From an uncultured Alphaproteobacteria bacterium (lineage in GTDB: Bacteria; Pseudomonadota; Alphaproteobacteria; Puniceispirillales; Puniceispirillaceae), in assembly GCA_937996625.1 (NCBI GenBank), contig CALKVA010000008.1, positions 20,902 to 84,901 of the forward strand: a stretch of DNA of 64,000 nucleotides, written 5' to 3'. Made by a program: the position numbers and the translations under genes. The notes below the pieces were generated by a model. The model was not told where the DNA came from. It did not search any database and worked only from the letters and a program-made list of their open reading frames with translations. Positions 5,547 to 64,000 of the stretch are shown here, one piece after another (the first letter of the stretch is position 1; each line of letters starts with the position of its first letter).

Positions 5547-5665
5547 TTTGCTCCTTTGCCAAGAAAACAGGCTGCCTATTAAGGATATATATAAAGCGCA
5601 GCTAACATTCATATAACAACTCATTCGTTGCTATAAAAAGTATTAAATCATAAATTTTATTATTA

Positions 5666-24409: not shown

Positions 24410-26152
24410 TTAGCCGTTCAAACTCTTATCGTCAAATTTAATCGAAGAAATGAAATATAATTCAACAAATTGTCCTTTAGAAATATTGAACCCGTCAACC
24501 TTAGATAGCTGATGGGTCGGTATATCTAGCTTTAACGCAGCTGTCTGAAATTGTTTTAAATGGCGTGATTCAACGATGATTGTTGCCTCTGGCGCCTCTG
24601 CCAAAAGTAAGGCGGCCTCATTTGCAGAAAGCAATAAAATTTCTTCCCCCAATGTAAATACAGCAGAAGGTTCGTGATAACCTGCCAGTGCGATAATGTT
24701 AGCATCTATGGCAAGTGCTTCGAGTTCCTGTTCGATTAAGGACGCAATATGAATAGATTTTAAGTTCCCAATAATGCCAGAAAATAACACGCAATTAAAC
24801 GCAATTCCAAGAATACTAGCTACAAGCACGACCTGGCCACGTTTTATAATCTGAGTTGAATCATCCCTAATCCATTTAAAGCCGAATGCAAAAATACCAA
24901 AAATTAGTAATAATGCAAAAAGCACAAACGCAAATGCAAAGCCTCCATTTTCTGCCCCTAATTTTGCGGCACCCCACAATCCAGCTGAAAGCAGCAAAAC
25001 CCCGCTCAAAGCAGATATCACAAATATTATCACTTCAGTGATACGGCGCCATTTCAATAAGGAGACGGGCAGAAATACGGCTCTGCCAATAAGCATAATA
25101 AGCGCTGGTAGTATCGGTAATATATAATGCGGCAATTTAGTTGGAATTAATTCGATCACAAACCAATAACCCACAAACCATACAAAACAGAACTTAGTTG
25201 CATCAGACCTCCAAAATTGAGCGTTTGTTCTACTAAAAGAGCCCAGAAATATAGAAACTGGAAACATCAATAACAGAATAGTTAACACATAAGTGCCAGG
25301 GGGTGCACCATGAGATTCCTGCCCACTAGCGAGTTTTGGCAAAAGGTCTTTTGTGACCGCTTGAGCAAGAAAACTGCCATCTGTAGCGATTGAAACAGCT
25401 AAAAACCAGGGAAGACAAATTATGCCAATAATAAGCAAGCCAGATACAAAACGAAGTTCTCTTATCCAGCGCAATTCGCGCTCTATAATCACCAATCCAA
25501 GCAGTGTCGTTAGCGCCAGAAAAGGTGCGATAGGTCCTTTAACCAATATGGCAAATGCCATTGAGACCCAAAACCAAACCCGCCCAGATCTATTATTTAG
25601 AAGGTGTTTGTTAAGGTGTTTATCAAGATGTCTATTTTTGTAAAATAACCATAAAGAGAACTGTTGAGTCATTATTAGGCTTAATAATAGTGAATCTGTT
25701 TTAGCGATATGCGCTTCGGCAAGTATAATAAAACAACTAGCAAGTAAAGACGAAGAGACAAGTTGCTGTAAATGGCGTGAATCAGGCCATAAATTTCGCA
25801 CAAACAAATAGCATAAAACCAGACTTACAATATAACCAACTAAGCTTGGGAGCCGATAGGATGATATGTCTTCTGAACCGAATAAGGCGGCTGATGCAGA
25901 TTGCAGCCAATAAATGCCAATTGGTTTTTTTGCTCGTAATTCATCTTGAAACTTAACCGTTATAATATCTGCTGTTTCCACCATTTGCTTACTTGCCTGC
26001 GCAAATCGTGCTTCGTCGCGATCAATAACGTTGATTGTAGCATGGCCAATTAGGATTAACAGACTGGCAAATATGACAAGAATCCATAAGCCCAACCGGC
26101 GGTGGCTTAACAATTTTGCATTAGCAAGCATTTCTGAATGGGAATTTAACAA
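24410..26152 (-). CDS. ArnT/PMT-like glycosyltransferase, GT39/GT83 type (polytopic)
   Basis: 580 aa with at least 10 TM helices. N-terminal DRDEARFAQASKQM motif as in ArnT-like enzymes. The ORF-track start is TTG (26152). The first ATG is at 26131. Confidence 0.75.
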   Translation of the reverse strand: MLNSHSEMLANAKLLSHRRLGLWILVIFASLLILIGHATINVIDRDEARFAQASKQMVETADIITVKFQDELRAKKPIGIYWLQSASAALFGSEDISSYRLPSLVGYIVSLVLCYLFVRNLWPDSRHLQQLVSSSLLASCFIILAEAHIAKTDSLLLSLIMTQQFSLWLFYKNRHLDKHLNKHLLNNRSGRVWFWVSMAFAILVKGPIAPFLALTTLLGLVIIERELRWIRELRFVSGLLIIGIICLPWFLAVSIATDGSFLAQAVTKDLLPKLASGQESHGAPPGTYVLTILLLMFPVSIFLGSFSRTNAQFWRSDATKFCFVWFVGYWFVIELIPTKLPHYILPILPALIMLIGRAVFLPVSLLKWRRITEVIIFVISALSGVLLLSAGLWGAAKLGAENGGFAFAFVLFALLLIFGIFAFGFKWIRDDSTQIIKRGQVVLVASILGIAFNCVLFSGIIGNLKSIHIASLIEQELEALAIDANIIALAGYHEPSAVFTLGEEILLLSANEAALLLAEAPEATIIVESRHLKQFQTAALKLDIPTHQLSKVDGFNISKGQFVELYFISSIKFDDKSLNG

Positions 26153-30203: not shown

Positions 30204-31097
30204 TTGATGAAAAAATCTGCAGGCATTGTGGGGCTTGGTGTACTTGGCTCTGCAATAGCACAATATCTACTCGAGAAGGATTACGAAATATACGGGTATG
30301 ATATAGCCCCAAATGCACTTAATGAGCTAGAAAAATTTGAAAACTTTAAAACATGCAGCTCACCTGCTAATGTATTGTCACATCAACAAATAACTCTTTT
30401 ATGTTTGCCATCTGCTGCAAGCCTAGAAATAGTTGTGAAGGATTTATCCAAAAATTCATTACCGCATTCTAAACAACCCCTTTTAATAGAATTATCTACT
30501 CTACCAGTGGACTCAAAAATCGCTGCGTTAAAGATCGCACAAGATAATAATATTAGAATGGTAGATTCACCAGTATCAGGAAATCGGATTGTCGCTTTAA
30601 ATGGAAAATTATCCGCCTATTTGTCTGGTATTAGGCAAGATACTGAAATTGCCAAACCTTTATTAGATGCTTTTTGTCAGAAGGTTACTGAAGTTGGCGA
30701 TTTTGGGAATGGAAGCAAAATGAAGCTTATTGGCAACATTTTAAATCTTGTTCATAACAGTGTGACCGCTGAAGTTATGGTTCTTGGGATGAAAGTGGGG
30801 TTAGAGCCAGAATTAATTCATAAAGCAATTAGCGGCACATTTTCAAGCTCAGCAGTATTTGAAGGGCGCGGAAAATTAATGGTTGATAATAATTATGCCG
30901 TGGAAGGGATGAACTTTTCTACGCCTATAAAAGATAGTGATTTTATTACCAAATTAGCTAAAGATCATTTTGTGCCACTGCCTTTATACCAGGTCGCCTT
31001 ACAATATTATTTAGCTGCAATGGCGCAGGGATACGAGGACCTAGACGCAGCTGCGGTTTGCGCAGTAGTTGAGAAGAATACAAATTTGAACCGCTAG
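30204..31097 (+). CDS. NAD(P)-dependent oxidoreductase, HIBADH family
   Basis: 297 aa. GIVGLGVLGSAIA Rossmann, GNGSKMKLIGN signature. Confidence 0.8.
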   Translation: MMKKSAGIVGLGVLGSAIAQYLLEKDYEIYGYDIAPNALNELEKFENFKTCSSPANVLSHQQITLLCLPSAASLEIVVKDLSKNSLPHSKQPLLIELSTLPVDSKIAALKIAQDNNIRMVDSPVSGNRIVALNGKLSAYLSGIRQDTEIAKPLLDAFCQKVTEVGDFGNGSKMKLIGNILNLVHNSVTAEVMVLGMKVGLEPELIHKAISGTFSSSAVFEGRGKLMVDNNYAVEGMNFSTPIKDSDFITKLAKDHFVPLPLYQVALQYYLAAMAQGYEDLDAAAVCAVVEKNTNLNR

Positions 31098-31979: not shown

Positions 31980-32858
31980 TCACTTCTGCAATAATTCTTT
32001 TAATTGTGGGTAGATAAGCATAAAATCTTCATGCTCATATGTTGGGTCAAGCATATCAAGTAGCCGCAAGCTATGGCTAAGAAAGGTTTGTTCCCCATTA
32101 GTTTGCAACAACTTTTCTAATAGCCCCAAATCTTTTTTAAGGTTGGAGGGTGTTGATTTACCATCAAATGTTCCTGATAAAATATGGTCTGGAAAACGCC
32201 TTTCTGAAATATAGCTTCGTGCGTTAGAGCAATTAAACACATCAATCATTTGACCTAAATCAAGGCCTTGCTTCTCGCCCTTGATACAAATTTCACTTAA
32301 CAGCAAAAAATTTCCGTGGCAAACAGCATTATGGAAAAGCTTCATTAACTGACCTTTACCTGCTCCCCCGATGTGAAAAATCTTATTTGAAAAAGAATTT
32401 AATATAGGCGTATTTTTTTCTAAAATATCAGCATCACCGCCAACCATCAATGTTAGCGTTCCAGCGGCTGCTCCCTTAGCTCCACCGGACATAGCTGCGT
32501 CTAACTGATTTACCCCAATTTCTTGCAGCAATTTTTCTGCTCGATTTTCTGTCACACGAGGGTCAGAACTTGTAAGGTCAACTATTGTTGCACCATGTTT
32601 TGGCGAGTCCAATGATAAAATGTTCCCTATCTGAATAGAGGATTGCACACACATTAAAACCAAATCACATTCTGTAACTATTTTGGTTGCTGAAGATTTT
32701 TTAATTAAAGGGTTTTTGGCTGTTAATTCTAATTTATAAGTATCAGTATCATAAACAAGTGATGATAAACCCGCCCTTGAAATACTTGCCGCGATGCCAC
32801 TACCCATTGCACCAAGACCAATTAGTCCAATATTAGGTTGAGTCATCATAAGCACCAC
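31980..32858 (-). CDS. NAD(P)-dependent oxidoreductase, HIBADH family
   Basis: 292 aa. IGLIGLGAMGSGIA Rossmann, GKGQLMKLFHN signature. Last enzyme gene of the long minus-strand ABC/CoA cluster. Confidence 0.8.
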   Translation of the reverse strand: MVLMMTQPNIGLIGLGAMGSGIAASISRAGLSSLVYDTDTYKLELTAKNPLIKKSSATKIVTECDLVLMCVQSSIQIGNILSLDSPKHGATIVDLTSSDPRVTENRAEKLLQEIGVNQLDAAMSGGAKGAAAGTLTLMVGGDADILEKNTPILNSFSNKIFHIGGAGKGQLMKLFHNAVCHGNFLLLSEICIKGEKQGLDLGQMIDVFNCSNARSYISERRFPDHILSGTFDGKSTPSNLKKDLGLLEKLLQTNGEQTFLSHSLRLLDMLDPTYEHEDFMLIYPQLKELLQK

Positions 32859-42403: not shown

Positions 42404-42415
42404 AATATCGATAAT
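42404..42415. promoter_or_regulatory. palindromic operator candidate AATATCGATAAT (copy 1 of 5)
   Basis: Exact TATCGATA core at 42406-42413 in the 61-bp gap between the TauE gene and the MCE-like gene, 33 bp upstream of the MCE-like start codon. Confidence 0.55.
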
Positions 42416-42432: not shown

Positions 42433-43170
42433 TTATGAATTGAAAATCAATGCAATACCAAGAGAAAATAATATTGTGTATGTAATGTACCTAAAATAGG
42501 CTTCAGACACTTTATCAAACAAAAAAATACCTGCCCTTAACCCGACTGATAGAGGGATAGAAAGCACGAGCCCAATTACAAGGAATTTAGAGTCAAAACC
42601 TTGCACAAAAATGAAATAAGCAAAAAACGATAATATCGTGCATATTATAACGAGCTGTATATTACTTTGAATGATATTTTTTTCAACTGGAGACGAAAAA
42701 AAATAAATTCCGGTAAAAGGGCCTGTAGGAACACCAAAAAAGCCCGAGAACAGGCCTGTTACCCACCCGAATCCAAGAGATATAAGTCTTGTTTGAGGCC
42801 CATTGTATCGCCAGCCGGAGAAGAGAATTAATGTCCCGACAATTATAAAAATTCCCATGTAAAAAGTAATTTGTGATATTTCATTCTTGAAAAGAAAATT
42901 TAAACCCATAAAGGCGCCAACGCAAAGCCCTGCGCTATAAAAAAGAGTTATTTTTTTTTGTGAATATTTCACAGCTCTTCTCACAGTAAACATAACACCC
43001 ACCAAACCCGACAAGATAATAATATTCATTCCAGCAATAGGGCCAAGAAGAAGAGTGTAACAAGGCAACATAAATAATGAACCTGCAAAACCAGTAAACC
43101 CTCTTACAATCCCTCCAAGAAAAGCTATTAAAACACATAAAAAGAGCGTGGATAATTCTATATCAAACAA
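42433..43170 (-). CDS. TauE/SafE-family permease
   Basis: 245-aa polytopic protein with family-typical G-rich helices (FLGGIVRGFTGFAGS ... GFFGVPTGPF). Confidence 0.7.
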   Translation of the reverse strand: MFDIELSTLFLCVLIAFLGGIVRGFTGFAGSLFMLPCYTLLLGPIAGMNIIILSGLVGVMFTVRRAVKYSQKKITLFYSAGLCVGAFMGLNFLFKNEISQITFYMGIFIIVGTLILFSGWRYNGPQTRLISLGFGWVTGLFSGFFGVPTGPFTGIYFFSSPVEKNIIQSNIQLVIICTILSFFAYFIFVQGFDSKFLVIGLVLSIPLSVGLRAGIFLFDKVSEAYFRYITYTILFSLGIALIFNS

Positions 43171-44490: not shown

Positions 44491-46167
44491 ATGAATAAAC
44501 AAACTGGTGCAGTTATATTAGCAGAATTATTAAAAGCTTATGGGATTACCCATATTTTTATGGTTCCGGCCGTCTTAAGAAGAACAATGGTGGAAATAGA
44601 GAAAAGGACAAATATCAAAAGACTTCACGTTCATTCAGAAAAATCAGCTGCTTATATGGCAGATGGTTTTGCGCGGGCATCTGGAAAGCCTGCTATTTGC
44701 ATGGCACAGGTAATTGGTGCTTTGAATATAGCAGCAGGGTTGCGAGATGCATTTCTGGCGCATTCTCCTGTAATCGCTCTTACAGGTGGCAGAGATCCGA
44801 AAACAAAATTCAAGAAGGTCTATCAAGAAATAGATGATATGCCTGCATTTGAGCCTGTCACAAAATTCAATGCAACGATTGATGATGTTAGCCGGATTCC
44901 TGATATGGTTGAACAGGCGTTTCGGGTTTCAACCTCTGGCTCACCAGGTCCCGTGCATTTGCAATTCAAAGGCAATGAAGCACAAATAGATTTAGAGGAA
45001 TTTGAATTTGAAAGTAATTTCAAGATATCAGACACACACATTCCACCGCATCGCCCGATTTGCAATGATACATTATTAAATGAAGCCCTAACCACCATTC
45101 AATTAGCACAGAGGCCAATTATTGTTGCTGGCGGCGGTGCAAAACATTCCAAATCTTCCCTAGAATTAATCGAATTTGCGGAAAAGCTGAATATACCAAT
45201 TGCAACTTCTCTGAATGGAAAAGATATAATTCATTCAACCCATCCTCTTTCGTGTGGTGTGGTTGGCACTTACTCACGCGAATCAGCTAATCTCTCTGTA
45301 AAAGCTGCTGACCTTGTGATATTTATTGGGTCTGAAACAAGCTCTATGACAACACATTTCTGGACAGTGCCAGATGATAAAACACGGGTTATTCAGATAG
45401 ATATCGAACCTGAAAATCTAGGCAGAAACTATCTTCTTGAAGTTGCAATACAAGGCGATGCAAAAGCAATCCTTGAGAGGATGAATGCGCTCGCATCTGC
45501 ACTTATCATTAGCGAGCGCACTGACTGGCTTGAGCATGTCCACGAGCTAAGACGTGATTGGTATCACAAATATAAATCCCTAATGGAAAGTGATGCCAAT
45601 CCAATAAGGCCAGAGCGATTATGCAAGGAAATTAGCGATAACGCTCCAGACAACGCTGTGATTGTTGTGGATACAGGCCATGCTGGTATGTGGATGGGCG
45701 GTATGTTTGATCTGCAGCATCCAAACCAAAATTACATTCGAAGCGCTGGCCATCTTGGCTGGGCGTTTCCAGCATCACTTGGGGCAAAATGTGCGCTGCC
45801 AGATAGAACAGTGATTTGCTTTACTGGAGATGCTGGATTTTGGTACCATATTGCTGAAATCGAAGTGGCCGTAAGATGGAACATTAATGTAATTGTGATT
45901 GTAAATAATAACAGTGGTGGCAACCAGTCAAAACGTGGTTTTGATAAAGCCTATGGCGGAGAGCAAACTGCCGAAGGTCGTCAGATGTGGACTTTCAATA
46001 ATATAAATTTTGCAGAAATCGCTCAGAATATAGGGGCTGTTGGTATTAGAGTAGAAAAAGCAGAAGATATAAAAACTGCGATTAAAAAAGCATTACAAAT
46101 GAACAAACCAGTAATTATTGATGTTGTGACTGACATCGATGCGTTAGCACCGCTAGCCGTTAACTAG
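44491..46167 (+). CDS. thiamine-diphosphate-dependent enzyme (acetolactate synthase / cyclohexanedione hydrolase-like family)
   Basis: 558 aa with three-domain ThDP architecture. ThDP-binding motif GDAGFWYHIAEIEVAVRWNINVIVIVNNNSGGN. Confidence 0.85.
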   Translation: MNKQTGAVILAELLKAYGITHIFMVPAVLRRTMVEIEKRTNIKRLHVHSEKSAAYMADGFARASGKPAICMAQVIGALNIAAGLRDAFLAHSPVIALTGGRDPKTKFKKVYQEIDDMPAFEPVTKFNATIDDVSRIPDMVEQAFRVSTSGSPGPVHLQFKGNEAQIDLEEFEFESNFKISDTHIPPHRPICNDTLLNEALTTIQLAQRPIIVAGGGAKHSKSSLELIEFAEKLNIPIATSLNGKDIIHSTHPLSCGVVGTYSRESANLSVKAADLVIFIGSETSSMTTHFWTVPDDKTRVIQIDIEPENLGRNYLLEVAIQGDAKAILERMNALASALIISERTDWLEHVHELRRDWYHKYKSLMESDANPIRPERLCKEISDNAPDNAVIVVDTGHAGMWMGGMFDLQHPNQNYIRSAGHLGWAFPASLGAKCALPDRTVICFTGDAGFWYHIAEIEVAVRWNINVIVIVNNNSGGNQSKRGFDKAYGGEQTAEGRQMWTFNNINFAEIAQNIGAVGIRVEKAEDIKTAIKKALQMNKPVIIDVVTDIDALAPLAVN

Positions 46168-48745: not shown

Positions 48746-49810
48746 CTAGAGACCTAGTAGCTTTTCTGCATTGCCACCGACAATCTTCGCGATATCTTCT
48801 TCTGTAAGAGATGTAGTGCCTGTAACATGACCAATTGGATCATCTTCAGCCATATCATACGGATAGTCAGTTCCCATCACAATTTTATCAGACCCATAGA
48901 TCTTTACAAGATAATCTAACTGCTCATAGGTAAACACAACTGTATCAAAATAGATTTTGCGCAAATAATCAGATGGCTTGCCCTTAATTATTTCGCGGCA
49001 ATCTGGGCGTGCACCCCATGCATGGTCGATACGTCCTGCATAAGCTGGCAGATATCCCCCGCCATGAACCGCAAGTATCTTAAGATTTGGATAGCGCTCA
49101 AGTGTCCCATCAAAAATCAAATGATGAATAGCAACTGTTGTATCAAGAGGGTTTCCGATGATGTTATTGAAATAATGGTTTAGGAAACGGTCGCCTTGCG
49201 GATATCCGTTCGGGTGCAACACCATTAATGTGTCAAGCTTTTCTGCCATTTCCCACATTGGATCAAGACTTCTATCTGATAGCTCAGTACCATTTACAGA
49301 TCCTAGAACCTGAAATCCTTTTAGACCTAATTCTTTTACACCGCGTTCCATTTCACGTGCAGCAGCATCACCATCCTGAAGTGGTAAATGTCCTAGCGCT
49401 AGAAATCTGTCAGGGCGAGATTGCGCAATAGATGCTAATTTATTATTGATGGTCTGGATAGCTTTATGGCCAACAGAATTTCGGACTGAATAATATGCCT
49501 GAAAAGGAACAGGAATAAGCACCTGCATATCAATTCCTTGACGGTCCATATCACGAAGGCGCTGATCCAAGTCTGTTAGATGAACGATTCTATCCTCTTG
49601 GTTTTGCTTCACATTTTGAGCAGTAGTGCGCGGATTTGTATATCTAACAGCTGGAATAGCCATCGGATTTAAAATCCCGTCTACAAGATCATGAGCCTCT
49701 TGAACATGAAGATGACAATGCGCGTCAATTGTAAGACGCGACGGACGAGTTTCTGCCCCTGACTTACCATGTTTTCTGGCAGCTGTTGCGCCATAAGGTC
49801 TTAATTCCAT
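48746..49810 (-). CDS. amidohydrolase-2 family protein (ACMSD/LigW-type non-oxidative decarboxylase-like)
   Basis: 354 aa. IDAHCHLH, LMVLHPNG, LAVHGGG, MGTDYPYD metal-ligand pattern. Confidence 0.75.
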   Translation of the reverse strand: MELRPYGATAARKHGKSGAETRPSRLTIDAHCHLHVQEAHDLVDGILNPMAIPAVRYTNPRTTAQNVKQNQEDRIVHLTDLDQRLRDMDRQGIDMQVLIPVPFQAYYSVRNSVGHKAIQTINNKLASIAQSRPDRFLALGHLPLQDGDAAAREMERGVKELGLKGFQVLGSVNGTELSDRSLDPMWEMAEKLDTLMVLHPNGYPQGDRFLNHYFNNIIGNPLDTTVAIHHLIFDGTLERYPNLKILAVHGGGYLPAYAGRIDHAWGARPDCREIIKGKPSDYLRKIYFDTVVFTYEQLDYLVKIYGSDKIVMGTDYPYDMAEDDPIGHVTGTTSLTEEDIAKIVGGNAEKLLGL

Positions 49811-49939: not shown

Positions 49940-49951
49940 AATATCGATAAT
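49940..49951. promoter_or_regulatory. palindromic operator candidate AATATCGATAAT (copy 2 of 5)
   Basis: Exact core at 49942-49949 in the 253-bp divergent region between the ACMSD-like amidohydrolase gene (-) and CoA-transferase subunit A gene (+). Confidence 0.55.
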
Positions 49952-51796: not shown

Positions 51797-51808
51797 ATTA
51801 TCGATAAA
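51797..51808. promoter_or_regulatory. palindromic operator candidate ATTATCGATAAA (copy 3 of 5)
   Basis: Exact 10-bp palindrome TTATCGATAA at 51798-51807, 39 nt upstream of the LigI-like amidohydrolase start. Confidence 0.55.
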
Positions 51809-55412: not shown

Positions 55413-56318
55413 ATGAATTCTAATATATTTATTGGCGTATTATGGATGGTATTAACAACCATTTGTTTTTCGCTAACGCTGACAGTTGTTCGCTATATCG
55501 GAACAGATATGCCAGCAACACAAGCTGCATTTATTCGTTATTTGTCAGGTGCAATCATACTGGCACCTTTCTGGCTGCCTGTTATGCGGCGATTATTAAT
55601 AGATACAAAAAACCAACCATCAGAAGCCATAAAGATGAAACGAAAAAGTCTACGATTCTTTGTTTTGCGCGGGGCTATTCATAGTATAGCGGTAATTTTA
55701 TGGTTTTATGCAACTATTCATATTCCAATTGCCGAAGTCACCGCTATTGGATATTCAATTCCTCTTTATGTTACAATCGGGGCAGCTTTGTTTTTTGGCG
55801 AGCATTTAAAGCCATACCACCTAATAGCACTTGGTATTGGATTTATAGGCGCGATGGTCATTATTAGACCTGGTTTTCAGCAAGTCTCTCTTGGACAATT
55901 GGCACAATTGCTTGCCTCCCCAATATTTGCAACTTCCTACCTGATGGCAAAACGCCTTTCTTTCAAAGAAAGCTCAATGGTTATTGTTGGTATGCTAAGC
56001 TTATTTGTATCTATGGCTCAAATACCAATGGTGCTGGTAGTATGGGAGAACCCAGATTTTTTTGATGTTATTTGTCTTGGGTTAGTAGCTATTTTAGCAA
56101 CAACTGGGCATTATGCTATGACACAATCTTTCCGCCTTACGCCAATGACGATTAGCCAACCTGTCACTTATTTGCAACTTGTCTGGGCAAGTATTATGGG
56201 CATTTATCTATTTGGTGATAGGTTTGATATTTTTGTGATACTGGGCGGAGCCATGATAACACTCTCTGCCACTGTAATTGCGTATTTGGATACAAGAGCT
56301 CCAAAAGATGCTATTTAA
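55413..56318 (+). CDS. DMT-superfamily (EamA) transporter
   Basis: 301 aa, 10 predicted TM helices in two EamA halves. Confidence 0.8.
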   Translation: MNSNIFIGVLWMVLTTICFSLTLTVVRYIGTDMPATQAAFIRYLSGAIILAPFWLPVMRRLLIDTKNQPSEAIKMKRKSLRFFVLRGAIHSIAVILWFYATIHIPIAEVTAIGYSIPLYVTIGAALFFGEHLKPYHLIALGIGFIGAMVIIRPGFQQVSLGQLAQLLASPIFATSYLMAKRLSFKESSMVIVGMLSLFVSMAQIPMVLVVWENPDFFDVICLGLVAILATTGHYAMTQSFRLTPMTISQPVTYLQLVWASIMGIYLFGDRFDIFVILGGAMITLSATVIAYLDTRAPKDAI

Positions 56319-57862
56319 TCGCTTTCAAATAAAGTCTTGAACTGATCTCTCAATAAATTTTTCTGGACTTTTCCCATACTATTTCTTGGCAGTGATGACA
56401 CGAACGCCACATGTTTTGGGCGTTTGTAATTCACAAGCTGGCTAGATAAGTAATTTACCACATCTGTTTGTGAAAGCTCGGCATCTTGTTGGGTAACAAT
56501 AACCGCAATAACGGCCTCTCCAAAATCTGCATGAGGAACACCGACAACTGCACTCTCACTCACCTGTGTCAGCTCGTCCAAAACTGTTTCAATCTCTTTA
56601 GGGTAGATATTAAATCCCCCAGAAATGATTAAATCCTTCTCTCTGCCAACGATGGAGATATAGCCATCCTCATCACGGCAAGCAAGATCCCCTGATATGA
56701 AATATCCATCAGAGCGAAATTCTGCTGCTGTTTTTTCGGGATTCTGCCAATAGCCTGTAAATAGGTTCGGACCCTTCATCTCAAGACTTCCAACCTCACC
56801 TTCAGCAACCTCCTCCATCGTCTCTCCTGAGGTTATACGCACAGTTATACCGTCAAGCGGCATACCTACTGTACCAGCTTTTCTTGTTCCATCATAGGGG
56901 TTTGAGGTAATCATGTTCGCTTCTGTCATACCGTAGCGTTCCAGAATCGCATGACCTGTTTTCTGGGTCCATTCTTCATGTGTTTGCGCCAATAAGGGCG
57001 CTGAACCAGACACAAATAAACGCATATTCTGAGCCGCCGAAGATAAATCAGGATGCTGAAGCAAGCGTGTATAGAATGTAGGAACGCCCATTAGCGAGGT
57101 AGCTGACGGCATCGCTTGGATAACTTTTTCTGTATCAAATTTATCCATAAACAGCATTTCAGCACCACTTACCAATGCAACATTAGTAGCCACAAATAGC
57201 CCATGAGTATGAAAAACAGGTAGAGCATGTATTAACACATCCTGCGCACTAAACTTCCACTGCCTGCATAGCGTTGATGCATTTGAGCCTAATGCACGGT
57301 GAGGTATCATTGCGCCCTTTGGTCTTCCTGTTGTGCCAGATGTATATAAAATAGCTGCTATATCTTCTTCCTGCCGCTCAGCAACAGAAGTAAATTTAAC
57401 ATTCTTCGAATTTATATCTTCATAGAATGAACCAGACTTATCAGCACCCATACTATATATAAAAGGAACATTTGATTCGCGTGCGATTTGGAATAATGTT
57501 TCCATTCTATCAAGCATGCAGACAAAAATGGTGGGCTGAGAATCATTCAAATAATAAGATACTTCTGTATCTGTAAAATCAGGATTTAGCGGGATATAGA
57601 TTCCACCTGCCATTATCACAGCTACATATAAACACAAGCTGTCTGACGATTTTGGTGTTTGAACAACTATCCTGTCACCTGCCTTTAATCCTAAATTTTG
57701 AAAAAAAGCACAATAGCGCTCGCAAATGGCAAAAAATGCCTCTCTGGTTATGGGCGCATCACCATTAGCAAAACGAATGAGCGTAGCATCTGGAGAATCA
57801 GCTAGGTGAGTGGCCAGAAGATTGATAAGAGCATTAGGTGAATAAGAAGAAGATGGGTACAT
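56315..57862 (-). CDS. matB: malonyl-CoA synthetase-like acyl-CoA ligase (ANL superfamily)
   Basis: 515 aa. LYTSGTTGRPKGA. The long stretch IHALPVFHTHGLFVATNV...GVPTFYTRLL...RLFVSGSAPLL...GHAILERYGMTE...GKVQKNLLR is colinear with rhizobial MatB as I remember it. Confidence 0.75.
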   Translation of the reverse strand: MYPSSSYSPNALINLLATHLADSPDATLIRFANGDAPITREAFFAICERYCAFFQNLGLKAGDRIVVQTPKSSDSLCLYVAVIMAGGIYIPLNPDFTDTEVSYYLNDSQPTIFVCMLDRMETLFQIARESNVPFIYSMGADKSGSFYEDINSKNVKFTSVAERQEEDIAAILYTSGTTGRPKGAMIPHRALGSNASTLCRQWKFSAQDVLIHALPVFHTHGLFVATNVALVSGAEMLFMDKFDTEKVIQAMPSATSLMGVPTFYTRLLQHPDLSSAAQNMRLFVSGSAPLLAQTHEEWTQKTGHAILERYGMTEANMITSNPYDGTRKAGTVGMPLDGITVRITSGETMEEVAEGEVGSLEMKGPNLFTGYWQNPEKTAAEFRSDGYFISGDLACRDEDGYISIVGREKDLIISGGFNIYPKEIETVLDELTQVSESAVVGVPHADFGEAVIAVIVTQQDAELSQTDVVNYLSSQLVNYKRPKHVAFVSSLPRNSMGKVQKNLLRDQFKTLFESD

Positions 57863-58114: not shown

Positions 58115-58126
58115 ATTATCGATAAT
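58115..58126. promoter_or_regulatory. palindromic operator candidate ATTATCGATAAT (copy 4 of 5)
   Basis: Perfect 12-bp palindrome in the matB / ABC-operon divergent region, 28-40 nt upstream of the ABC ATPase start. Flanked by CTAAG...CTTAG. Confidence 0.55.
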
Positions 58127-58154: not shown

Positions 58155-58958
58155 ATGGGGGAAAATATGGCCGCGTCTGCTAAAAAGGCAGAAGACCTTT
58201 CACAATTTGGTCAAACTGTTATAGAAGGAAAAAATGTAACAAAAATCTTCGGAGAAACTGTTACAGCACTCGAAGGAGCTAATTTTGATATCCAAGCTGG
58301 TGAATTTATTTCACTCGTTGGACCTAGCGGTTGTGGTAAATCGACATTATTGCGCCTTGTGGCAGGATTAATTGAAAAAACTTCTGGTGATGTTAAAGTT
58401 AACGATGATTTAGTGACCAAACCACGAACTGATATTGGTATGATGTTTCAGAAAGCGGTGCTACTTGATTGGCGTACAGCGATAGAAAATGTTCTATTGC
58501 CATCTGAAATGAAACACCGAATTACTCAAGAAGACAAAGATAAAGCGATGGCCTCCCTTGAGCTTGTTGGATTGAAGGGATTCGAATTTCATTTTCCAAA
58601 GCAATTATCAGGCGGAATGCAGCAACGTGTAGCACTCGCAAGGCTTATTCAAACAGGCGCTGATATTATGCTAATGGATGAACCTTTTGGTGCTCTTGAT
58701 GAATTCACAAGAGAGCGCTTGAACGTTGAGTTAATGCGTATTGTCGGTGAACTAAAAGCAACAACATTGTTTGTGACACACAATATTCAAGAAGCAATTT
58801 ACCTTGCGGACAGAGTGATGGTTATGACACCACGCCCTGGAAAAATAGCAGAGATTATCGAAGTCAAGTTCGAACGTCCAAGAGATATATCTATTCAGAC
58901 CAGTCGTGAATTTAATATAATCATAGAGCAGGTGAGAGACACGTTGGGGAGTCATTGA
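58155..58958 (+). CDS. ABC transporter ATP-binding protein, NitT/TauT (nitrate/sulfonate/bicarbonate) family
   Basis: Walker A GPSGCGKST, signature LSGGMQQR, Walker B LMDEPFGALD. The in-frame ATG at 58167 has a GGGGGA SD and is the likelier start. Confidence 0.88.
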   Translation: MGENMAASAKKAEDLSQFGQTVIEGKNVTKIFGETVTALEGANFDIQAGEFISLVGPSGCGKSTLLRLVAGLIEKTSGDVKVNDDLVTKPRTDIGMMFQKAVLLDWRTAIENVLLPSEMKHRITQEDKDKAMASLELVGLKGFEFHFPKQLSGGMQQRVALARLIQTGADIMLMDEPFGALDEFTRERLNVELMRIVGELKATTLFVTHNIQEAIYLADRVMVMTPRPGKIAEIIEVKFERPRDISIQTSREFNIIIEQVRDTLGSH

Positions 58959-58962
58959 TTAG

Positions 58963-59820
58963 ATGTCCTATTCAACGAGCCAACAAACCAAAAATATTAG
59001 CTTATTTAAGACACTACCATTCCATTTGCTCATATTTGCTGCGCTTATTGTGATTTGGGAATTGACAAATCTCTACGGGTTTGAGGACCAAATTCAAGCG
59101 GATATGATTGCACCAAGACCAACTAACATTGTTCTTGCCATGCTTGATATTTTCATTGTCGATAAAACAGTTTGGAAACATCTGATATCTACTTTTCAAA
59201 AAGCTTTGTTAGGCGCAAGTATTGGTACTGCAATAGGTATGGGTTTAGCGATTGCAGCGACACTTAGCCTGACCTTCAGAAAATACATAAAGCCTTGGAT
59301 TATTTTAATGGAAGCAACACCTAGAATTGCTGTTGGTCCCATCTTTGTCGCTCTTTTAGGGTTCGGATTATGGTCAGCAGTTGCACTTGCTGCATTAGTT
59401 GCGTTCTTCGGCCCATTTGTAAATACGTTTCAAGGATTAATGGAAGTTGATGATGAAGCAGAAGAGATGTTTCGCTCTCTTGGAGCATCACGGTTTCAGA
59501 CATTCTGGAAGTTAAGATTTGCGTCCGCTATGGAACTAATATCAGCTGGTTGGAAACTTGCTACTGCTTCTGCATTTGGCGGCGCACTTGTTGCTGAATT
59601 TATTCAAGCAAGTGAGGGAATGGGCGTTCTAATTGCGCAATATGTGATCATGATTACCATGGATTACGCATTTGCAGGACTTTTATCCGTTACTATATTT
59701 GGATTTATATTATTTAAAATAATGGATTATTTCGACTACCGTCTGATTTTTTGGAAAAATGATTATCTTCTTTTAAAAGAAAGTGAAAAAAGACGCAAGA
59801 AAGCAGGGATTGTATCATGA
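58963..59820 (+). CDS. ABC transporter permease (NitT/TauT family), first of two
   Basis: 285-aa polytopic protein with a BPD_transp_1-type loop (FRSLGASRFQTFWKLRF). Confidence 0.85.
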   Translation: MSYSTSQQTKNISLFKTLPFHLLIFAALIVIWELTNLYGFEDQIQADMIAPRPTNIVLAMLDIFIVDKTVWKHLISTFQKALLGASIGTAIGMGLAIAATLSLTFRKYIKPWIILMEATPRIAVGPIFVALLGFGLWSAVALAALVAFFGPFVNTFQGLMEVDDEAEEMFRSLGASRFQTFWKLRFASAMELISAGWKLATASAFGGALVAEFIQASEGMGVLIAQYVIMITMDYAFAGLLSVTIFGFILFKIMDYFDYRLIFWKNDYLLLKESEKRRKKAGIVS

Positions 59821-60653
59821 AAACAGTAAGCTTTTTGGTATCGTTTTTAAAATATTCACTTAGTTTTATCCTAGTCCTTGGTTTATGGGAAGTGTACGCA
59901 AGATATGGAGGACTAAATGAGTTATTTTTGCCTCGCCCATCAAAAATTGGAGCTAAGCTATATAGCCTTTTCGTAAAGTTTGAAGTCATCGAGCAAGGCA
60001 CGATATATTGGCATTTTTTTGCAACGCTAGCACAAATGAGTATCGGATTTGTTTACGGAATAACGATTGGAACAACATTAGCGGTACTAGCAGCGTTTAA
60101 CGAAACATTTAGAAGATATGTTGCCCCTTATGCAGTTGTCTTTAATGTAACACCTGGTATTGCGGTTCTTCCATTAATTATTGCTTGGTTCGGTTTTGGC
60201 TGGGAATCCAAGATTGCTTTGGCAACATTGGTATGTTTCTTCCCACCATTTATTAATACATTAACTGGTTTGTTAAAGAAGAATGACGAAGCGATTGAGC
60301 TGTTTCAGACAATTGGTGCAACTCAGTCACAATATTTCTGGAAGCAACAACTTCCAAATGCATTACCCGAGGTTTTTGCTGGATTAAAACTTGCAATCAC
60401 GACAGCGTTACTTGGCACGATTGTAGCGCAGTTTGGATCAGCAACTGAAGGGGTAGGAATTCTAATGCAGCGATTTGCGTTTAGGCTAGATATGGCTGGC
60501 TCGTTCGCTTCATTAGTTACGATGGCTATCATGGGTCTATTAGTTTTCACCATTGCAGAAGTGATGGACAGACGTATCGTGTTTTGGCGTGATGCCAAAG
60601 GTCTAGAGCGGGTGTCCAAAAAGAAGCAACGTAAACTAATGGTCAATGGGTAG
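59817..60653 (+). CDS. ABC transporter permease (NitT/TauT family), second of two
   Basis: 278 aa, paralogous to the previous gene (FQTIGATQSQYFWKQQLP). ATGA overlap. Confidence 0.85.
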   Translation: MKTVSFLVSFLKYSLSFILVLGLWEVYARYGGLNELFLPRPSKIGAKLYSLFVKFEVIEQGTIYWHFFATLAQMSIGFVYGITIGTTLAVLAAFNETFRRYVAPYAVVFNVTPGIAVLPLIIAWFGFGWESKIALATLVCFFPPFINTLTGLLKKNDEAIELFQTIGATQSQYFWKQQLPNALPEVFAGLKLAITTALLGTIVAQFGSATEGVGILMQRFAFRLDMAGSFASLVTMAIMGLLVFTIAEVMDRRIVFWRDAKGLERVSKKKQRKLMVNG

Positions 60654-60690
60654 GCAAAAAAAGTGAAGACCTTAATGTGAGGTTTTTAAA

Positions 60691-61761
60691 ATGAGCGTAA
60701 GGGAGAAAAATATGCTTAAAAAAATATTAGCGACCGCGATAGCAGTTGCAGTGATATCGCCAATGTCAGCTATGGCTGGCGGACACCTGGATAAAATCAC
60801 AATTATCCAACCTTCTTATCCGTCAATGATTTTCTGGCCGTCACATATCAGTGCACAGCTAGGATTTTATGAGGAGCAAGGTATTGACCCAACATATCTT
60901 GATGGTGATACAACCGTTCCATATCAGGCTTTCCTATTAAATGGACAAGCTGACTTTGCAATGCTTGACGGCCCTCAGGTTTTCCAGGGTGCCGCTGCAG
61001 GTATGGGTTTAAAAACTGCCTATTCAGTTCATAGTTCAGCACCAGAGGGTGTTTATGTAAATGATGATAGCCCACTTCAAAGCGTAACTGAGCTAAAAGG
61101 TAAGACTGTTGGTCTTGCATCAGACCGTGACCTTGCTTCTCTAAAAGTTGCATTAGCTCATGCTGATTCAAATACTGATGGTATTAGCACAGTTGTTGTT
61201 GGTGACGCGGGTCCTACATTGGCAAACGTATTTCTAAAAGGAACAGCTGCTGCATTCGCAGGTTCAATTTCTGACTTGGCAGCACTTGCAACCAAAGGTG
61301 TTATTGTAAGAGATATCACACCTCCATCAGCAAAAGTTGCTCCTGCAAACACATATGCTGTTAACGGCGCAACAATGATGGATAACTATGACAAATATTG
61401 TCGTTTCCTAAAAGCATACTCAATGGGTGTGCACGTTGGTCATTACAACCTAGATATCATTGCAGCTATGTCAAAGGCACCTGATGGTTCGCCAGCACAG
61501 TGGGAAGTTGAATCAGTGGGTAATTCCTACTTAGCAGCTGTGGCAAAACTTCAGTTACCACCAGAAGGTGACACATTATATGGCTTGGTAGCTGAGTCTG
61601 CATGGCTTACAGTTAACAATGATATGAAGATGATCGGTGCAGTAGACGCAGATTATGATACAAATGATTATCTTACACACGTATTCGAAGGCTGTGCAAA
61701 CAACTTCGATCGTGCGGCAGTTGAAGCAGCTGCTGATGCATGGATGGCTAAAAACGGTTAA
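60691..61761 (+). CDS. periplasmic substrate-binding protein, NMT1/THI5-like (NitT/TauT family)
   Basis: Signal peptide MLKKILATAIAVAVISPMSAMA. The ATG at 60712 has an AGGGAG SD and is the likelier start. Confidence 0.75.
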   Translation: MSVREKNMLKKILATAIAVAVISPMSAMAGGHLDKITIIQPSYPSMIFWPSHISAQLGFYEEQGIDPTYLDGDTTVPYQAFLLNGQADFAMLDGPQVFQGAAAGMGLKTAYSVHSSAPEGVYVNDDSPLQSVTELKGKTVGLASDRDLASLKVALAHADSNTDGISTVVVGDAGPTLANVFLKGTAAAFAGSISDLAALATKGVIVRDITPPSAKVAPANTYAVNGATMMDNYDKYCRFLKAYSMGVHVGHYNLDIIAAMSKAPDGSPAQWEVESVGNSYLAAVAKLQLPPEGDTLYGLVAESAWLTVNNDMKMIGAVDADYDTNDYLTHVFEGCANNFDRAAVEAAADAWMAKNG

Positions 61762-61845: not shown

Positions 61846-62715
61846 TTAAATAACAGGATTTGTAAGTGACCCCAATCCTGTAACGTTGATTGTAACAACA
61901 TCTCCAGATTTCAAAAACTTCGGAGGGTTGAAACCTATACCTACACCAACAGGTGTTCCAGTTGCAATTATATCTCCTGCAAGAAGTGTCCCTGTTAAGG
62001 TAAGAGTTTCAATTAAAGTTGGTATGTCAAATATGAGATCGCGAACCTCTGCTTGCTGGCGAACCTCATTATTCACAAGCGTTTGAATTTGCATAGATGG
62101 CAAATCACCTATTTCATCCTTGGTCACAATATAAGGACCCATCGGTCCAAACGTATCCAAGCCTTTTCCAATTGTCCATTGGTTATGCTTTTTCTGCAAC
62201 TCACGAGAAGTGACATCATTGATAATGACATACCCAAATACGTAATCCTGCCAATCAGCTTTGGCAACACGCCGCGCTGTTTTGCTAATTATCACACCAA
62301 GCTCACCTTCATAATCAACAGATTCTGTTGGATCAATTGAGGCATTAATGGCATCATTTGGCCCAATTAGCGATGTCATTGCTTTGGTGAAAATTATGGG
62401 CTCAGATGGAATTGTTTCTTTCTGAGTTGCATCGAAACCTGAATCAAAAAACTCCTTTGCATGTGCATAGTAATTTTTTCCAACACATACCATATCTCTG
62501 ATGAGATACGGTATCGGAGCTAGTATCTGAACATCGGTTAAATCTCTTCTCTCAGCAGTATCGATGATATCGTCCCAAGATGCCATATTACCATTGCGTA
62601 TAATAGATAGGACAGCCATATCGGCCCCCTCTCCTTCAACACAACAGACAAACTCATCGCCGATAATCATGCCTGCTTTTATGTTACCATTATCCTTTAC
62701 AGTTGCGAGTTTCAT
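61846..62715 (-). CDS. fumarylacetoacetate hydrolase (FAH) family protein
   Basis: 289 aa. DYEGELGVII, INDVTSRELQ, GTPVGVG motifs of the FAH C-terminal domain. Confidence 0.88.
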   Translation of the reverse strand: MKLATVKDNGNIKAGMIIGDEFVCCVEGEGADMAVLSIIRNGNMASWDDIIDTAERRDLTDVQILAPIPYLIRDMVCVGKNYYAHAKEFFDSGFDATQKETIPSEPIIFTKAMTSLIGPNDAINASIDPTESVDYEGELGVIISKTARRVAKADWQDYVFGYVIINDVTSRELQKKHNQWTIGKGLDTFGPMGPYIVTKDEIGDLPSMQIQTLVNNEVRQQAEVRDLIFDIPTLIETLTLTGTLLAGDIIATGTPVGVGIGFNPPKFLKSGDVVTINVTGLGSLTNPVI

Positions 62716-62758
62716 AACGCTCCTTCCTTCTGGTTATTTACTAAAAATACTCTAGCCA

Positions 62759-62770
62759 ATTATCGATAAA
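62759..62770. promoter_or_regulatory. palindromic operator candidate ATTATCGATAAA (copy 5 of 5)
   Basis: Exact TTATCGATAA at 62760-62769 in the 132-bp divergent region between the FAH gene (43 nt away) and the HIBADH-TauE pair (77 nt away). Confidence 0.55.
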
Positions 62771-62847
62771 TGTGAACATAATAATATCAACATTTTAATT
62801 AATAAAAAAAACTGCTGGATTAACAATAATAACAAAACGGAGTTATC

Positions 62848-63711
62848 ATGGGCGTGGGAATTATCGGACTTGGCGCAATGGGCGGAGCATATGCTCGAAA
62901 CTTATTGGCAGGGGGCATTTCGGTATCTGGTTTTGACCCAGATCCAGCTGCACAAGAAATGTTAAGTAAGGCAGGCGGCACGCCTCAGACCAGCTATGGT
63001 GACTGGCTTGGTGAGTGTGAGCTAGTAATCTTATCCCTAGCAAATATAAAAATTCTTGCAGATGCGACTCAAAAACTGAGTGGCATTTTAAAACCAGGAC
63101 AAGTTGTTTTGGAAACCGGAACTTTCACTCTCGAAACAAAACAGGCTGCAAAAAAGATGTTAGACAGCTGTGGCGCCATCCTACTGGATTGCCCTGTTAG
63201 CGGAACTGGCGCGCAAGCAGCGGTAGCTGATCTTGTGATGATGGCCAGTGGTTCAGAAGAGGCATTTACCAGAATAAAACCGCTATTAGAGCATTTTACA
63301 AAGTCAGTCCTTTATGCCGGACCTTTCGGAAATGGCTCTAAACTAAAATTTGTGGCAAATCATGCTGTGTACGTTCATAATTGCGCTGCAGCAGAAAGCC
63401 TTAATTACGGAATAACTCTTGGTTTAGACCCCAAAATGATATTTGAATTACTATCTAATGGAGCTGGTCAGTCAAAAATGTCTGATTTGCGTATGCCATT
63501 AATGATAGACCATGCCTATGAACCAGCTACAGCAAATATGACAATTGCTTATAAAGATATATCGGTCATCAGTGAGGATATTAAAAGCAACAATTGTTCA
63601 ACTCCACTTTTTGATGTTACCCAGAAATTATATGATGTAGCGAAAAAGGGCGTGCCTATTACATATGATACAGGTGCGGTTTATGAAGTTTATAAGCAAA
63701 AATTGGTTTAA
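62848..63711 (+). CDS. NAD(P)-dependent oxidoreductase, HIBADH family
   Basis: 287 aa. GIIGLGAMGGAYA Rossmann, GNGSKLKFVAN signature. Its stop overlaps the start of the next gene (TAATG). Confidence 0.85.
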   Translation: MGVGIIGLGAMGGAYARNLLAGGISVSGFDPDPAAQEMLSKAGGTPQTSYGDWLGECELVILSLANIKILADATQKLSGILKPGQVVLETGTFTLETKQAAKKMLDSCGAILLDCPVSGTGAQAAVADLVMMASGSEEAFTRIKPLLEHFTKSVLYAGPFGNGSKLKFVANHAVYVHNCAAAESLNYGITLGLDPKMIFELLSNGAGQSKMSDLRMPLMIDHAYEPATANMTIAYKDISVISEDIKSNNCSTPLFDVTQKLYDVAKKGVPITYDTGAVYEVYKQKLV

Positions 63712-64000
63712 TGACTTTTGAACCATATAGCTTTCTTACGATAGCTTCAATAATGCTTGCCTTAGTGCTTTCAGGCAGTGTGAAGGGTGTTTTTGGCATT
63801 GGGTTTCCTGTCGTTGCCATGGCAATCCTTCCACTATTTATTACACCCATTTCGGCTATAACCGTTATTGCACTTCCTATTGTAGTGACAAATATTCAGC
63901 AGCTTTTTTCAGAGAAAGAATGGAGGTACATAATTATAAAATACAGGTATATGGCGCTATTCATGCTACTTGCAAGTTTTCTATCAAGCCAGATACTTAC
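63711..64000 (+). CDS. TauE/SafE-family permease, N-terminal part (3' end outside the window)
   Basis: The ATG at 63711 shares its A with the TAA of the upstream gene. My translation MTFEPYSFLTIASIMLALVLSGSVKGVFGIGFPVVAMAILPLF... shows the family G-rich first helix pair. Below the ORF-track length cut-off because it is truncated. Confidence 0.65.
   Translation, partial: MTFEPYSFLTIASIMLALVLSGSVKGVFGIGFPVVAMAILPLFITPISAITVIALPIVVTNIQQLFSEKEWRYIIIKYRYMALFMLLASFLSSQIL

Follow-up and report, generated by a model that had tools for sequence, protein, structure and literature searches.

A conserved, overlapping dehydrogenase–TauE gene pair in a SAR116 genus and in Rhodobacterales

IsfE is a member of the TauE/DUF81 family. 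Its partnership with the reductase IsfD (PMC6616044), as well as that of SftR/SftD with the TauE-type SftE (PMC7491151), provides the reductase-plus-exporter precedents for sulfonates. The TauE/SafE (TSUP) permeases are not sulfur-specific; KbuT, for example, carries alpha-ketobutyrate (PMC12671195). Here, we analyzed a stretch of 64,000 nucleotides of contig CALKVA010000008.1 from an uncultured SAR116 alphaproteobacterium (G000:C8:20902-84901, hereafter the window), at the end of which a dehydrogenase gene of the HIBADH family runs directly into a TauE/SafE permease gene. An initial annotation had proposed that these two genes form a translationally coupled module for a small anion, possibly a sulfonate such as 2,3-dihydroxypropanesulfonate (DHPS) or sulfolactate. 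As reductase–exporter pairs for sulfonates are on record, the logic of that proposal has precedent; the companions that define those systems are missing here. Our favored reading, to which we assign a probability of about one half, is that the pair combines a dehydrogenase with a co-evolved TSUP permease in a coupled operon that serves as the last unit of a catabolic cluster, efflux being the probable direction of transport.

The overlapping pair and its conservation

The focal HIBADH-family (beta-hydroxyacid) dehydrogenase gene occupies positions 62848-63711 of the forward strand and encodes a protein of 287 amino acids, placed by Pfam, tree, and motifs in an uncharacterized clade. Direct reading of the sequence bore out that its stop codon (TAA, 63709-63711) shares one nucleotide with the start codon of the TauE gene (ATG, 63711-63713), giving a TAATG overlap at 63709-63713 on the same strand. 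The window holds the forward-strand TauE gene only from 63711 to 64000, and this 96-residue fragment yielded a TauE match at 29 bits. The complete gene, which we recovered from the contig (L001 1613-2368, equivalent to window positions 63711-64466), encodes 251 amino acids and matches positions 2-236 of the 237-position PF01925 model at 77.2 bits (cut-off 32.6). A crude Kyte-Doolittle scan revealed approximately 7-8 hydrophobic segments, which fits a polytopic TSUP protein of ~250 residues. Membership in TSUP was judged by a PF01925 match over the full length (TC 2.A.102) and by a size of ~250 residues with ~8 transmembrane segments, and the protein displayed both. Its identity to the other TauE paralogs of the same genome does not exceed 31%. 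Downstream, a convergent Gfo/Idh/MocA gene overlaps the TauE stop with its own stop, and the transcription unit therefore consists of two genes only; a fifth HIBADH gene lies beyond this convergent gene, just outside the window (L001 3374-4312).

The focal pair is a real, evolutionarily conserved unit. Orthologs of the focal TauE (82-87% identity) were found in eight of nine other genomes of the same genus, with the focal HIBADH directly upstream each time, and relatives with a TauE of 83-94% identity showed complete synteny over 20 kb. In other SAR116 genera, the best TauE relatives are 30-38% identical and have a HIBADH gene within 1.5 kb in 0/21 loci, and the focal HIBADH was not found in the 12 other sampled genera of the family. 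A first reading that the pair is limited to one genus was overturned by searches from the HIBADH side and in metagenomes. Many relatives of the focal HIBADH, at 53-60% identity, occur in Rhodobacterales, Stappiaceae, and Geminicoccaceae, and overlapping HIBADH–TauE genes are also present in Silicimonas sp. MF1-12-2, an uncultured Rhodobacter, and Histidinibacterium lentulum.

In the reverse test, metagenome contigs were scanned with an alignment of the focal TauE clade, which returned 17 loci, 16 of them with upstream DNA. A focal-type HIBADH was located directly upstream of TauE in all 16. Five of these loci are distant, with TauE 37-54% and HIBADH 52-56% identical to the focal proteins, and on contig L183 the flanking genes are rearranged with the HIBADH–TauE pair retained. 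Stop and start codons overlap, as TAATG/TGATG or ATGA/GTGA, in 19/19 junctions examined from the SAR116 genus, the three Rhodobacterales genomes, and the distant metagenome contigs. The pairing thus holds beyond the genome in which it was first noted, as checked in 8/9 same-genus genomes, three Rhodobacterales genomes, and five distant metagenome contigs. The conserved overlap argues for co-expression of the reductase and the permease, and we infer from the junction that the two would be co-translated. The TauE clade is dedicated to the focal HIBADH clade, yet optional for the HIBADH.

Other HIBADH and TauE genes and the chance of adjacency

The initial annotation had counted four HIBADH and three TauE genes in the window, and Pfam returned the same numbers: HIBADH genes at 5666-6529 (-), 30204-31097 (+), 31980-32858 (-), and 62848-63711 (+), and TauE genes at 4701-5624 (-), 42433-43170 (-), and from 63711 (+). 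The fourth HIBADH paralog (30204-31097, forward strand; Pfam and tree) is the last gene of an operon composed of Gfo/Idh/MocA, zinc-dependent alcohol dehydrogenase, and HIBADH genes. The whole 2.0-Mb genome (99.9% complete), which the names of near-identical proteins assign to the SAR116 cluster, holds 7 TauE and 8 strong HIBADH genes, and the three TauE genes on contigs C7, C19, and C28 have no HIBADH nearby. The statement that every TauE is linked to a HIBADH gene was therefore too strong: the second pair is uncoupled, the third link spans 11 kb, and these three further TauE genes lack a HIBADH partner.

The same pair had been said to recur at 6529-4701 on the other strand. The adjacency in the same order stands, and the coupling does not. 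The permease of this second pair (reverse strand, PF01925 at 164 bits) probably starts at Met27, the conserved position from which its homologs align, and would span 4701-5546, the longest open reading frame (ORF) reaching to 5624; from Met27 it measures 281 amino acids, against 307 for the longest ORF, and all of its homologs have 277-282. Counted from Met27, the spacer to the dehydrogenase is therefore ~119 nt long, or 41 nt if the longest ORF is taken; the adjacency is found in 8/16 ortholog loci. The dehydrogenase (5666-6529, reverse strand) is tartronate-semialdehyde-reductase-like according to Pfam, TIGR01505, and the tree, scoring 230 bits against a TIGR01505 cut-off of 341 and grouping with GarR/GlxR at a support of 95/85. 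In a TARA SAR116 relative (L160-L162), a succinate-semialdehyde dehydrogenase gene (TIGR01780 at 677 bits, cut-off 646) is interposed between the two genes on the opposite strand, a hint that the HIBADH of the second pair acts on a C4 semialdehyde or hydroxy-acid. The flanks of the second pair are housekeeping genes, and homologs of its TauE at 41-42% identity follow TRAP transporters. The second pair is a case of family-level synteny and not a coupled module. A recent duplication as the origin of the two pairs was rejected, since the HIBADH paralogs share 19-33% identity and BLASTP detects no similarity between the two TauE proteins.

The third TauE (42433-43170, reverse strand, PF01925 at 68 bits) does head a gene string that ends with a HIBADH paralog (31980-32858, reverse strand, Pfam), as had been described; the two genes are not direct neighbors, as they lie at its opposite ends. 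The ten co-directional genes of this string run over 11 kb in the order TauE, VOC, crotonase, family-III CoA-transferase, MR/MLE, Dpp-type ATP-binding cassette (ABC) transporter, and HIBADH, and the 61-nt spacer between TauE and VOC contains a palindrome at 42405-42414. Elsewhere, TauE genes stand before an Alph_Pro_TM gene, between IspA and EamA, and after TctA and TctB.

Two further loci of this genome deserve a record of their own. At G000:C7:58125-59836 (L152 6125-7836), a gene for a 304-aa TauE has a 4-nt overlap with that for an Alph_Pro_TM (PF09608) membrane protein, representing a second, different tightly coupled TauE pair. A look-alike cluster on contig C10 (G000:C10:171001-191000, L151) has a TauE directly after an Amidohydro_2 gene, with a HIBADH 3 kb off; there, OsmC and HIBADH (345 aa) genes are convergent with M24 peptidase, alpha/beta hydrolase, TauE, and Amidohydro_2 genes. 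It also contains GST, FAH, GntR, Gfo/Idh/MocA, creatininase, and 2-hydroxyacid dehydrogenase genes and a second NMT1-type ABC system.

When the 8 HIBADH and 7 TauE genes were shuffled among ~1950 genes, at least two adjacent pairs arose by chance with P = 0.0013; when only the dehydrogenase-rich window was shuffled, the value was P = 0.045. From a single genome alone, the adjacency is thus suggestive only. The window is unusually dense in both families, and the latter value would be consistent with an adjacency that is a by-product of a dehydrogenase- and transporter-rich island, the TauE being a generic housekeeping permease without a functional link to the enzyme. In support of this notion, the second pair is patchily conserved among housekeeping genes, and homologs of its TauE (~41% identity) occur in unrelated contexts. 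We nevertheless consider such a coincidence very improbable for the focal pair, as all 19 junctions keep the overlap and all 16 TauE-clade members follow one and the same HIBADH clade, both in distant taxa and where the surrounding genes are rearranged; if the unit were not under selection, this would be difficult to account for.

Identity of the dehydrogenase and the sulfonate question

The focal dehydrogenase matches the N-terminal NAD(P)-binding Rossmann domain NAD_binding_2 (PF03446) at 106.9 bits against a cut-off of 21 and the C-terminal all-alpha domain NAD_binding_11 (PF14833) at 60.7 bits against a cut-off of 30. The motifs of this family are a GxGxxG dinucleotide-binding motif, an S-G-G/T substrate loop, and a catalytic Lys within GxGxxxK. 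The corresponding GLGAMGG (residues 7-13), S118-G119-T120, and K167 are invariant in the focal clade and align with YihU, GarR, and YgbJ. The protein falls below every NCBIfam equivalog cut-off. Its best match is L-threonate dehydrogenase (NF043037, 156.8 bits against a cut-off of 350), followed by 3-hydroxyisobutyrate dehydrogenase (115 bits) and tartronate-semialdehyde reductase (106 bits), while the model for the sulfolactaldehyde (SLA) reductase YihU (NF012005) is the weakest beta-hydroxyacid dehydrogenase equivalog match, at 86.5 bits against a cut-off of 348. A PDB search placed 3g0o at the top with 111 bits and YihU (6sm7) 23rd with 60 bits. In a tree that included YihU, GarR, GlxR, and YgbJ of Escherichia coli, the focal clade received a support of 100/100 and is sister to a wider clade containing the 30204-31097 gene of the window. 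It is joined weakly to YgbJ (73/91), YgbJ/LtnD being the nearest E. coli paralog, and YihU was placed apart from it among long unresolved branches. The phylogenetic comparison with YihU that had been proposed as a check therefore put the focal clade on the YgbJ side and the second-pair reductase with GarR/GlxR. The alignment further revealed V-G-R-T in YihU against V-S-G-T-G in the focal clade. Arg123, Asn174, and Ser178 of YihU align to Gly119, Ala170, and Val174 of the focal protein; these three YihU residues are said to have been described by Sharma et al. in 2020 as part of the sulfonate pocket. The genes for OtnK (a DUF1537 kinase), OtnC, and OtnI are not among the Pfam-annotated neighbors within 10 kb in close relatives.

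These comparisons bear directly on a sulfonate module, in which the HIBADH would reduce sulfolactaldehyde or another sulfo-aldehyde and TauE would export DHPS or sulfolactate, or else TauE would export sulfite derived from a sulfonate imported by a NitT/TauT system. Several observations speak for it. The TauE family was founded on members with links to sulfite and organosulfonates, and sulfoglycolysis clusters have an SLA reductase or dehydrogenase together with a TauE-type exporter (PMC7491151). The importer adjoining the focal pair is a NitT/TauT family member and gives weak SsuA and TauB-like matches. Moreover, an IlvD/Edd dehydratase, a short-chain dehydrogenase/reductase (SDR), and a lactonase, all of sulfo-Entner–Doudoroff (sulfo-ED) families, are encoded 7-11 kb upstream, and sulfite is made by the cell through SuyAB on contig C5. 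On the other side stand the failure of the focal enzyme against the YihU model (86.5 vs 348 bits), its 23rd PDB rank, its position in the tree, and the change of the GRT motif to SGT. The cluster has no sulfonate enzymes (sulfoquinovosidase, aldolase, Xsc, SuyAB, and CuyA are all absent), and the conserved neighbors of the HIBADH clade are of decarboxylase, monooxygenase, and reductase types. The genome lacks Xsc altogether, the best matches reaching 253 and 242 bits where 676 are required; the thiamine-diphosphate enzyme at 44491-46167 was rejected as an Xsc candidate on the latter score.

A separate, canonical DHPS/sulfolactate cluster is located at G000:C5:21001-37000 (L159 1833-12672) and contains neither TauE nor HIBADH. 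It comprises genes for a DctPQM TRAP transporter as its own importer, an HpsN candidate of the histidinol-dehydrogenase family, an SDR, a zinc-dependent alcohol dehydrogenase, SuyB (GD_AH), a ComC-type Ldh_2 enzyme, and a PF03601 membrane protein, which is a different candidate exporter. Whereas a sulfite exporter is expected alongside a sulfite-releasing enzyme, SuyB lies on C5, far from any TauE, and the focal TauE has no such neighbor. Going by its gene content, the organism handles sulfonates and makes sulfite via this separate, self-contained locus. The suggestion of DHPS or sulfolactate as cargo accordingly found no support in the YihU model, the PDB rank, the tree, the motif, or a desulfonation gene in the cluster. 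A sulfonate module for the focal pair is, in our estimate, improbable, and the cargo of TauE would rather be a non-sulfonate.

Two sulfonate analogies were also discarded. SlcC, the (S)-sulfolactate dehydrogenase, had been considered as a HIBADH relative but belongs to the D-2-hydroxyacid dehydrogenase family (PMC6303947). The sulfofucose/sulfo-ED analogy (PMC12421959), prompted by the upstream lactonase, SDR, and IlvD genes, failed for want of an aldolase or SLA dehydrogenase; these upstream genes lie outside the neighborhood conserved in Rhodobacterales.

The surrounding cluster, a working model, and comparison with known systems

In Rhodobacterales, the operon runs in the order GntR, ABC ATPase, two permeases, NMT1-type binding protein, Amidohydro_2, HIBADH, and optional TauE. 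Across 80 loci, the neighbors include a second HIBADH (36), LysR (19), Amidohydro_2 (16), Gfo/Idh/MocA (15), flavin reductase (15), SDR (14), 2-hydroxyacid dehydrogenase (12), a PuuE-like enzyme of the polysaccharide-deacetylase fold (11), and a PRK07236-type FAD monooxygenase (11). The SAR116 cluster shares its gene order with Histidinibacterium, namely importer, Gfo/Idh/MocA, second HIBADH, flavin reductase, CMD-like protein, deacetylase, and 2-hydroxyacid dehydrogenase, and has no regulator gene at that place. The second HIBADH of the cluster resembles glyoxylate/succinic-semialdehyde reductases (PDB 3doj at 137 bits, then 3pef and 3pdu).

The importer, a NitT/TauT-type ABC system with an ATPase, two permeases, and an NMT1-type binding protein (58155-61761, forward strand, Pfam), is syntenic with the importer heading the Rhodobacterales operon, at identities of 64-69% for the ATPase and 36-40% for the binding protein. 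No PDB relative of the NMT1 binding protein was found, and hence no ligand hint. The ACMSD-like Amidohydro_2 decarboxylase (48746-49810, reverse strand, PF04909) is the closest homolog in the genome of the Rhodobacterales gene directly before HIBADH, with 48% identity to the Silicimonas operon gene; the best PDB relatives of the Silicimonas-type protein are ACMSD decarboxylases (150 bits). In SAR116, this homolog lies 13 kb upstream, and its position is occupied by an FAH-family hydrolase gene (61846-62715, reverse strand, PF01557 at 215 bits), whose best NCBIfam match is 2,4-didehydro-3-deoxy-L-rhamnonate hydrolase, at 183 bits where the cut-off is 500. A homolog of the monooxygenase (61% identity) is encoded on another contig of the SAR116 genome. 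Because of the restricted distribution in SAR116 and the 50-70% identities to Rhodobacterales proteins, the cluster is probably common to one SAR116 genus and Rhodobacterales via horizontal transfer. Homarine catabolism (hom operon, PMC13236597) was rejected as an assignment for the cluster on account of mismatching enzyme families.

The FAH-family gene is divergent from the focal pair, and the region between them contains the palindrome TTATCGATAA at 62760-62769, found by pattern search, so that the placement of the module behind 'copy 5' of this palindrome and opposite an FAH-family gene was correct. TTATCGATAA is located 78 nt upstream of the HIBADH start, within the spacer of a weak promoter-like site (TAGCCA, 62753-62758; CATAAT, 62777-62782); promoter and terminator scans did not rise above chance. 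A pattern search for [AT]TATCGATA[AT] returned 31 genomic copies, five of them intergenic in a 21-kb stretch of the window (42405-42414, 49941-49950, 51798-51807, 58116-58125, and 62760-62769). Another copy, at G000:C28:30343, lies 80 bp upstream of TctC-TctA-TctB-TauE genes, and one at C10:192039 lies beside the C10 look-alike cluster. This distribution suggests one regulon that would comprise the focal pair, the ABC operon with the divergent malonyl-CoA synthase gene, the ACMSD-like gene, and others, and the palindrome looks like a putative operator of organic-acid catabolism. The AMP-binding protein encoded by the divergent gene (56315-57862, reverse strand) passes the NCBIfam cut-off for malonyl-CoA synthase of the MatB type (719 vs 558 bits), and the palindrome lies in the intergenic region that it shares with the ABC importer operon.

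Two further ORFs were recorded. At 24410-26152 (reverse strand), a 580-aa ORF with a TTG start and no Pfam match at E 1e-6 adjoins a family-2 glycosyltransferase gene. Just downstream of the window, an inositol-monophosphatase-family ORF (L001 7701-8156, reverse strand; C8:90700-91155) encodes 151 aa from a TTG start; its relatives have 246-248 aa, some 145 aa, and a truncation or mis-start is possible.

In the model that we favor, the imported substrate would be processed to a small oxo-acid or semialdehyde, which the HIBADH would interconvert with the matching hydroxy-acid using NAD(P)(H), and TauE would then carry this small organic anion through the membrane. Since the cluster is already equipped with a high-affinity ABC importer, TauE would more likely serve the efflux of a reduced by-product. 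Several points weigh against this model. Among 75 HIBADH loci at ~40% identity, none has a TauE. Several HIBADH relatives from the 53-60% range, in Loktanella, Albidovulum, Labrenzia, and one metagenome-assembled genome, have no adjacent TauE either, although the last of these has one 5 kb away. As most HIBADH relatives are without TauE, the permease is dispensable for the pathway. The decarboxylase gene lies 13 kb off with an FAH-family gene in its stead, and the SAR116 pathway may thus differ from the Rhodobacterales version. Both NMT1/NitT-TauT importers and TauE are often linked to sulfonates, and the cargo could possibly be sulfonated. Lastly, the direction of transport is deduced purely from the gene context.

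The reverse direction would have TauE take up a small hydroxy-acid, as TsaS does toluenesulfonate and KbuT alpha-ketobutyrate, for the HIBADH to oxidize as the first step, independently of the ABC importer. The experimentally supported TSUP members include uptake systems (PMC12671195), and the nearest characterized dehydrogenase relative, of the LtnD/YgbJ type, oxidizes an imported hydroxy-acid; the two-gene unit also stays intact despite the rearrangement of its neighbors in L183. However, most carriers have the pair at the tail of an operon with a complete ABC importer, and TauE is missing in most genomes that keep the HIBADH and the cluster, which would be odd for an entry step. We therefore regard uptake as unlikely, though it ranks first among the alternatives, ahead of a sulfonate or sulfite role and, last, of the absence of a functional link.

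A more specific form of the efflux model can be put forward tentatively, with the odds somewhat against it. The pair may act as a dedicated safety valve in a marine catabolic pathway that has yet to be described, whose substrate would be an aromatic or N-heterocyclic carboxylate of high abundance, perhaps a sulfonated one; the TSUP clade would have evolved solely to expel the reduced hydroxy-acid by-product. Such a pathway might combine the NMT1-type ABC importer, the ACMSD-like decarboxylase, the new HIBADH clade, and the second semialdehyde reductase. The Gfo/Idh/MocA enzyme and the flavin reductase/monooxygenase might also take part, with horizontal transfer between Rhodobacterales and the SAR116 genus. 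If true, this would be the first TSUP permease with a defined non-sulfur efflux substrate.

We regard the focal pair as a useful lead and not as a surprise. TSUP/TauE ranks with the largest transporter families for which hardly any substrate is defined, and a TauE clade tied to one dehydrogenase clade offers a clean handle for substrate assignment. The cluster represents an uncharacterized pathway in two abundant marine groups, SAR116 and Rhodobacterales, and its substrate, once known, would add a compound to the map of carbon flow from phytoplankton to bacteria.

Among the described systems, TauABC-Toa-IsfD-IsfE of Chromohalobacter salexigens (PMC6616044) resembles the focal locus in bringing together a NitT/TauT-type ABC importer, an NAD(P)H reductase that converts an aldehyde to an anionic alcohol, and a putative exporter of this waste product, an arrangement that follows the reduce-then-export logic. 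However, IsfD is an SDR while the focal enzyme is a HIBADH, the taurine-nitrogen pathway is defined by an aminotransferase that is absent from the focal cluster, and its substrate is a sulfonate, of which the focal cluster gives no indication. YihU of E. coli belongs, like the focal enzyme, to the HIBADH family; it is an aldehyde reductase and makes DHPS for export. The sft clusters (PMC7491151) place the TauE-type exporter SftE beside an SLA reductase or dehydrogenase, an arrangement comparable to that of the focal pair. Unlike sulfoglycolysis loci, the focal neighborhood contains no sulfoquinovosidase, isomerase, transaldolase, aldolase, or kinase. LtnD/YgbJ (E. coli ygbJKLMN; 3g0o), a HIBADH-fold enzyme that oxidizes a small hydroxy-acid, is the best NCBIfam and PDB match of the focal enzyme, which differs from it in its score (157 vs 350 bits), its weak link in the tree (73/91), and the lack of OtnK, OtnC, and OtnI in the cluster. 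With the TSUP permeases TauE, SafE, TsaS, and KbuT, the focal TauE shares PF01925, a length of ~250 aa, and a polytopic architecture; it differs in that its clade was found solely behind one dehydrogenase clade (16/16 metagenome loci). Both gene families are thus ordinary, and the new element is their strict, clade-specific coupling.

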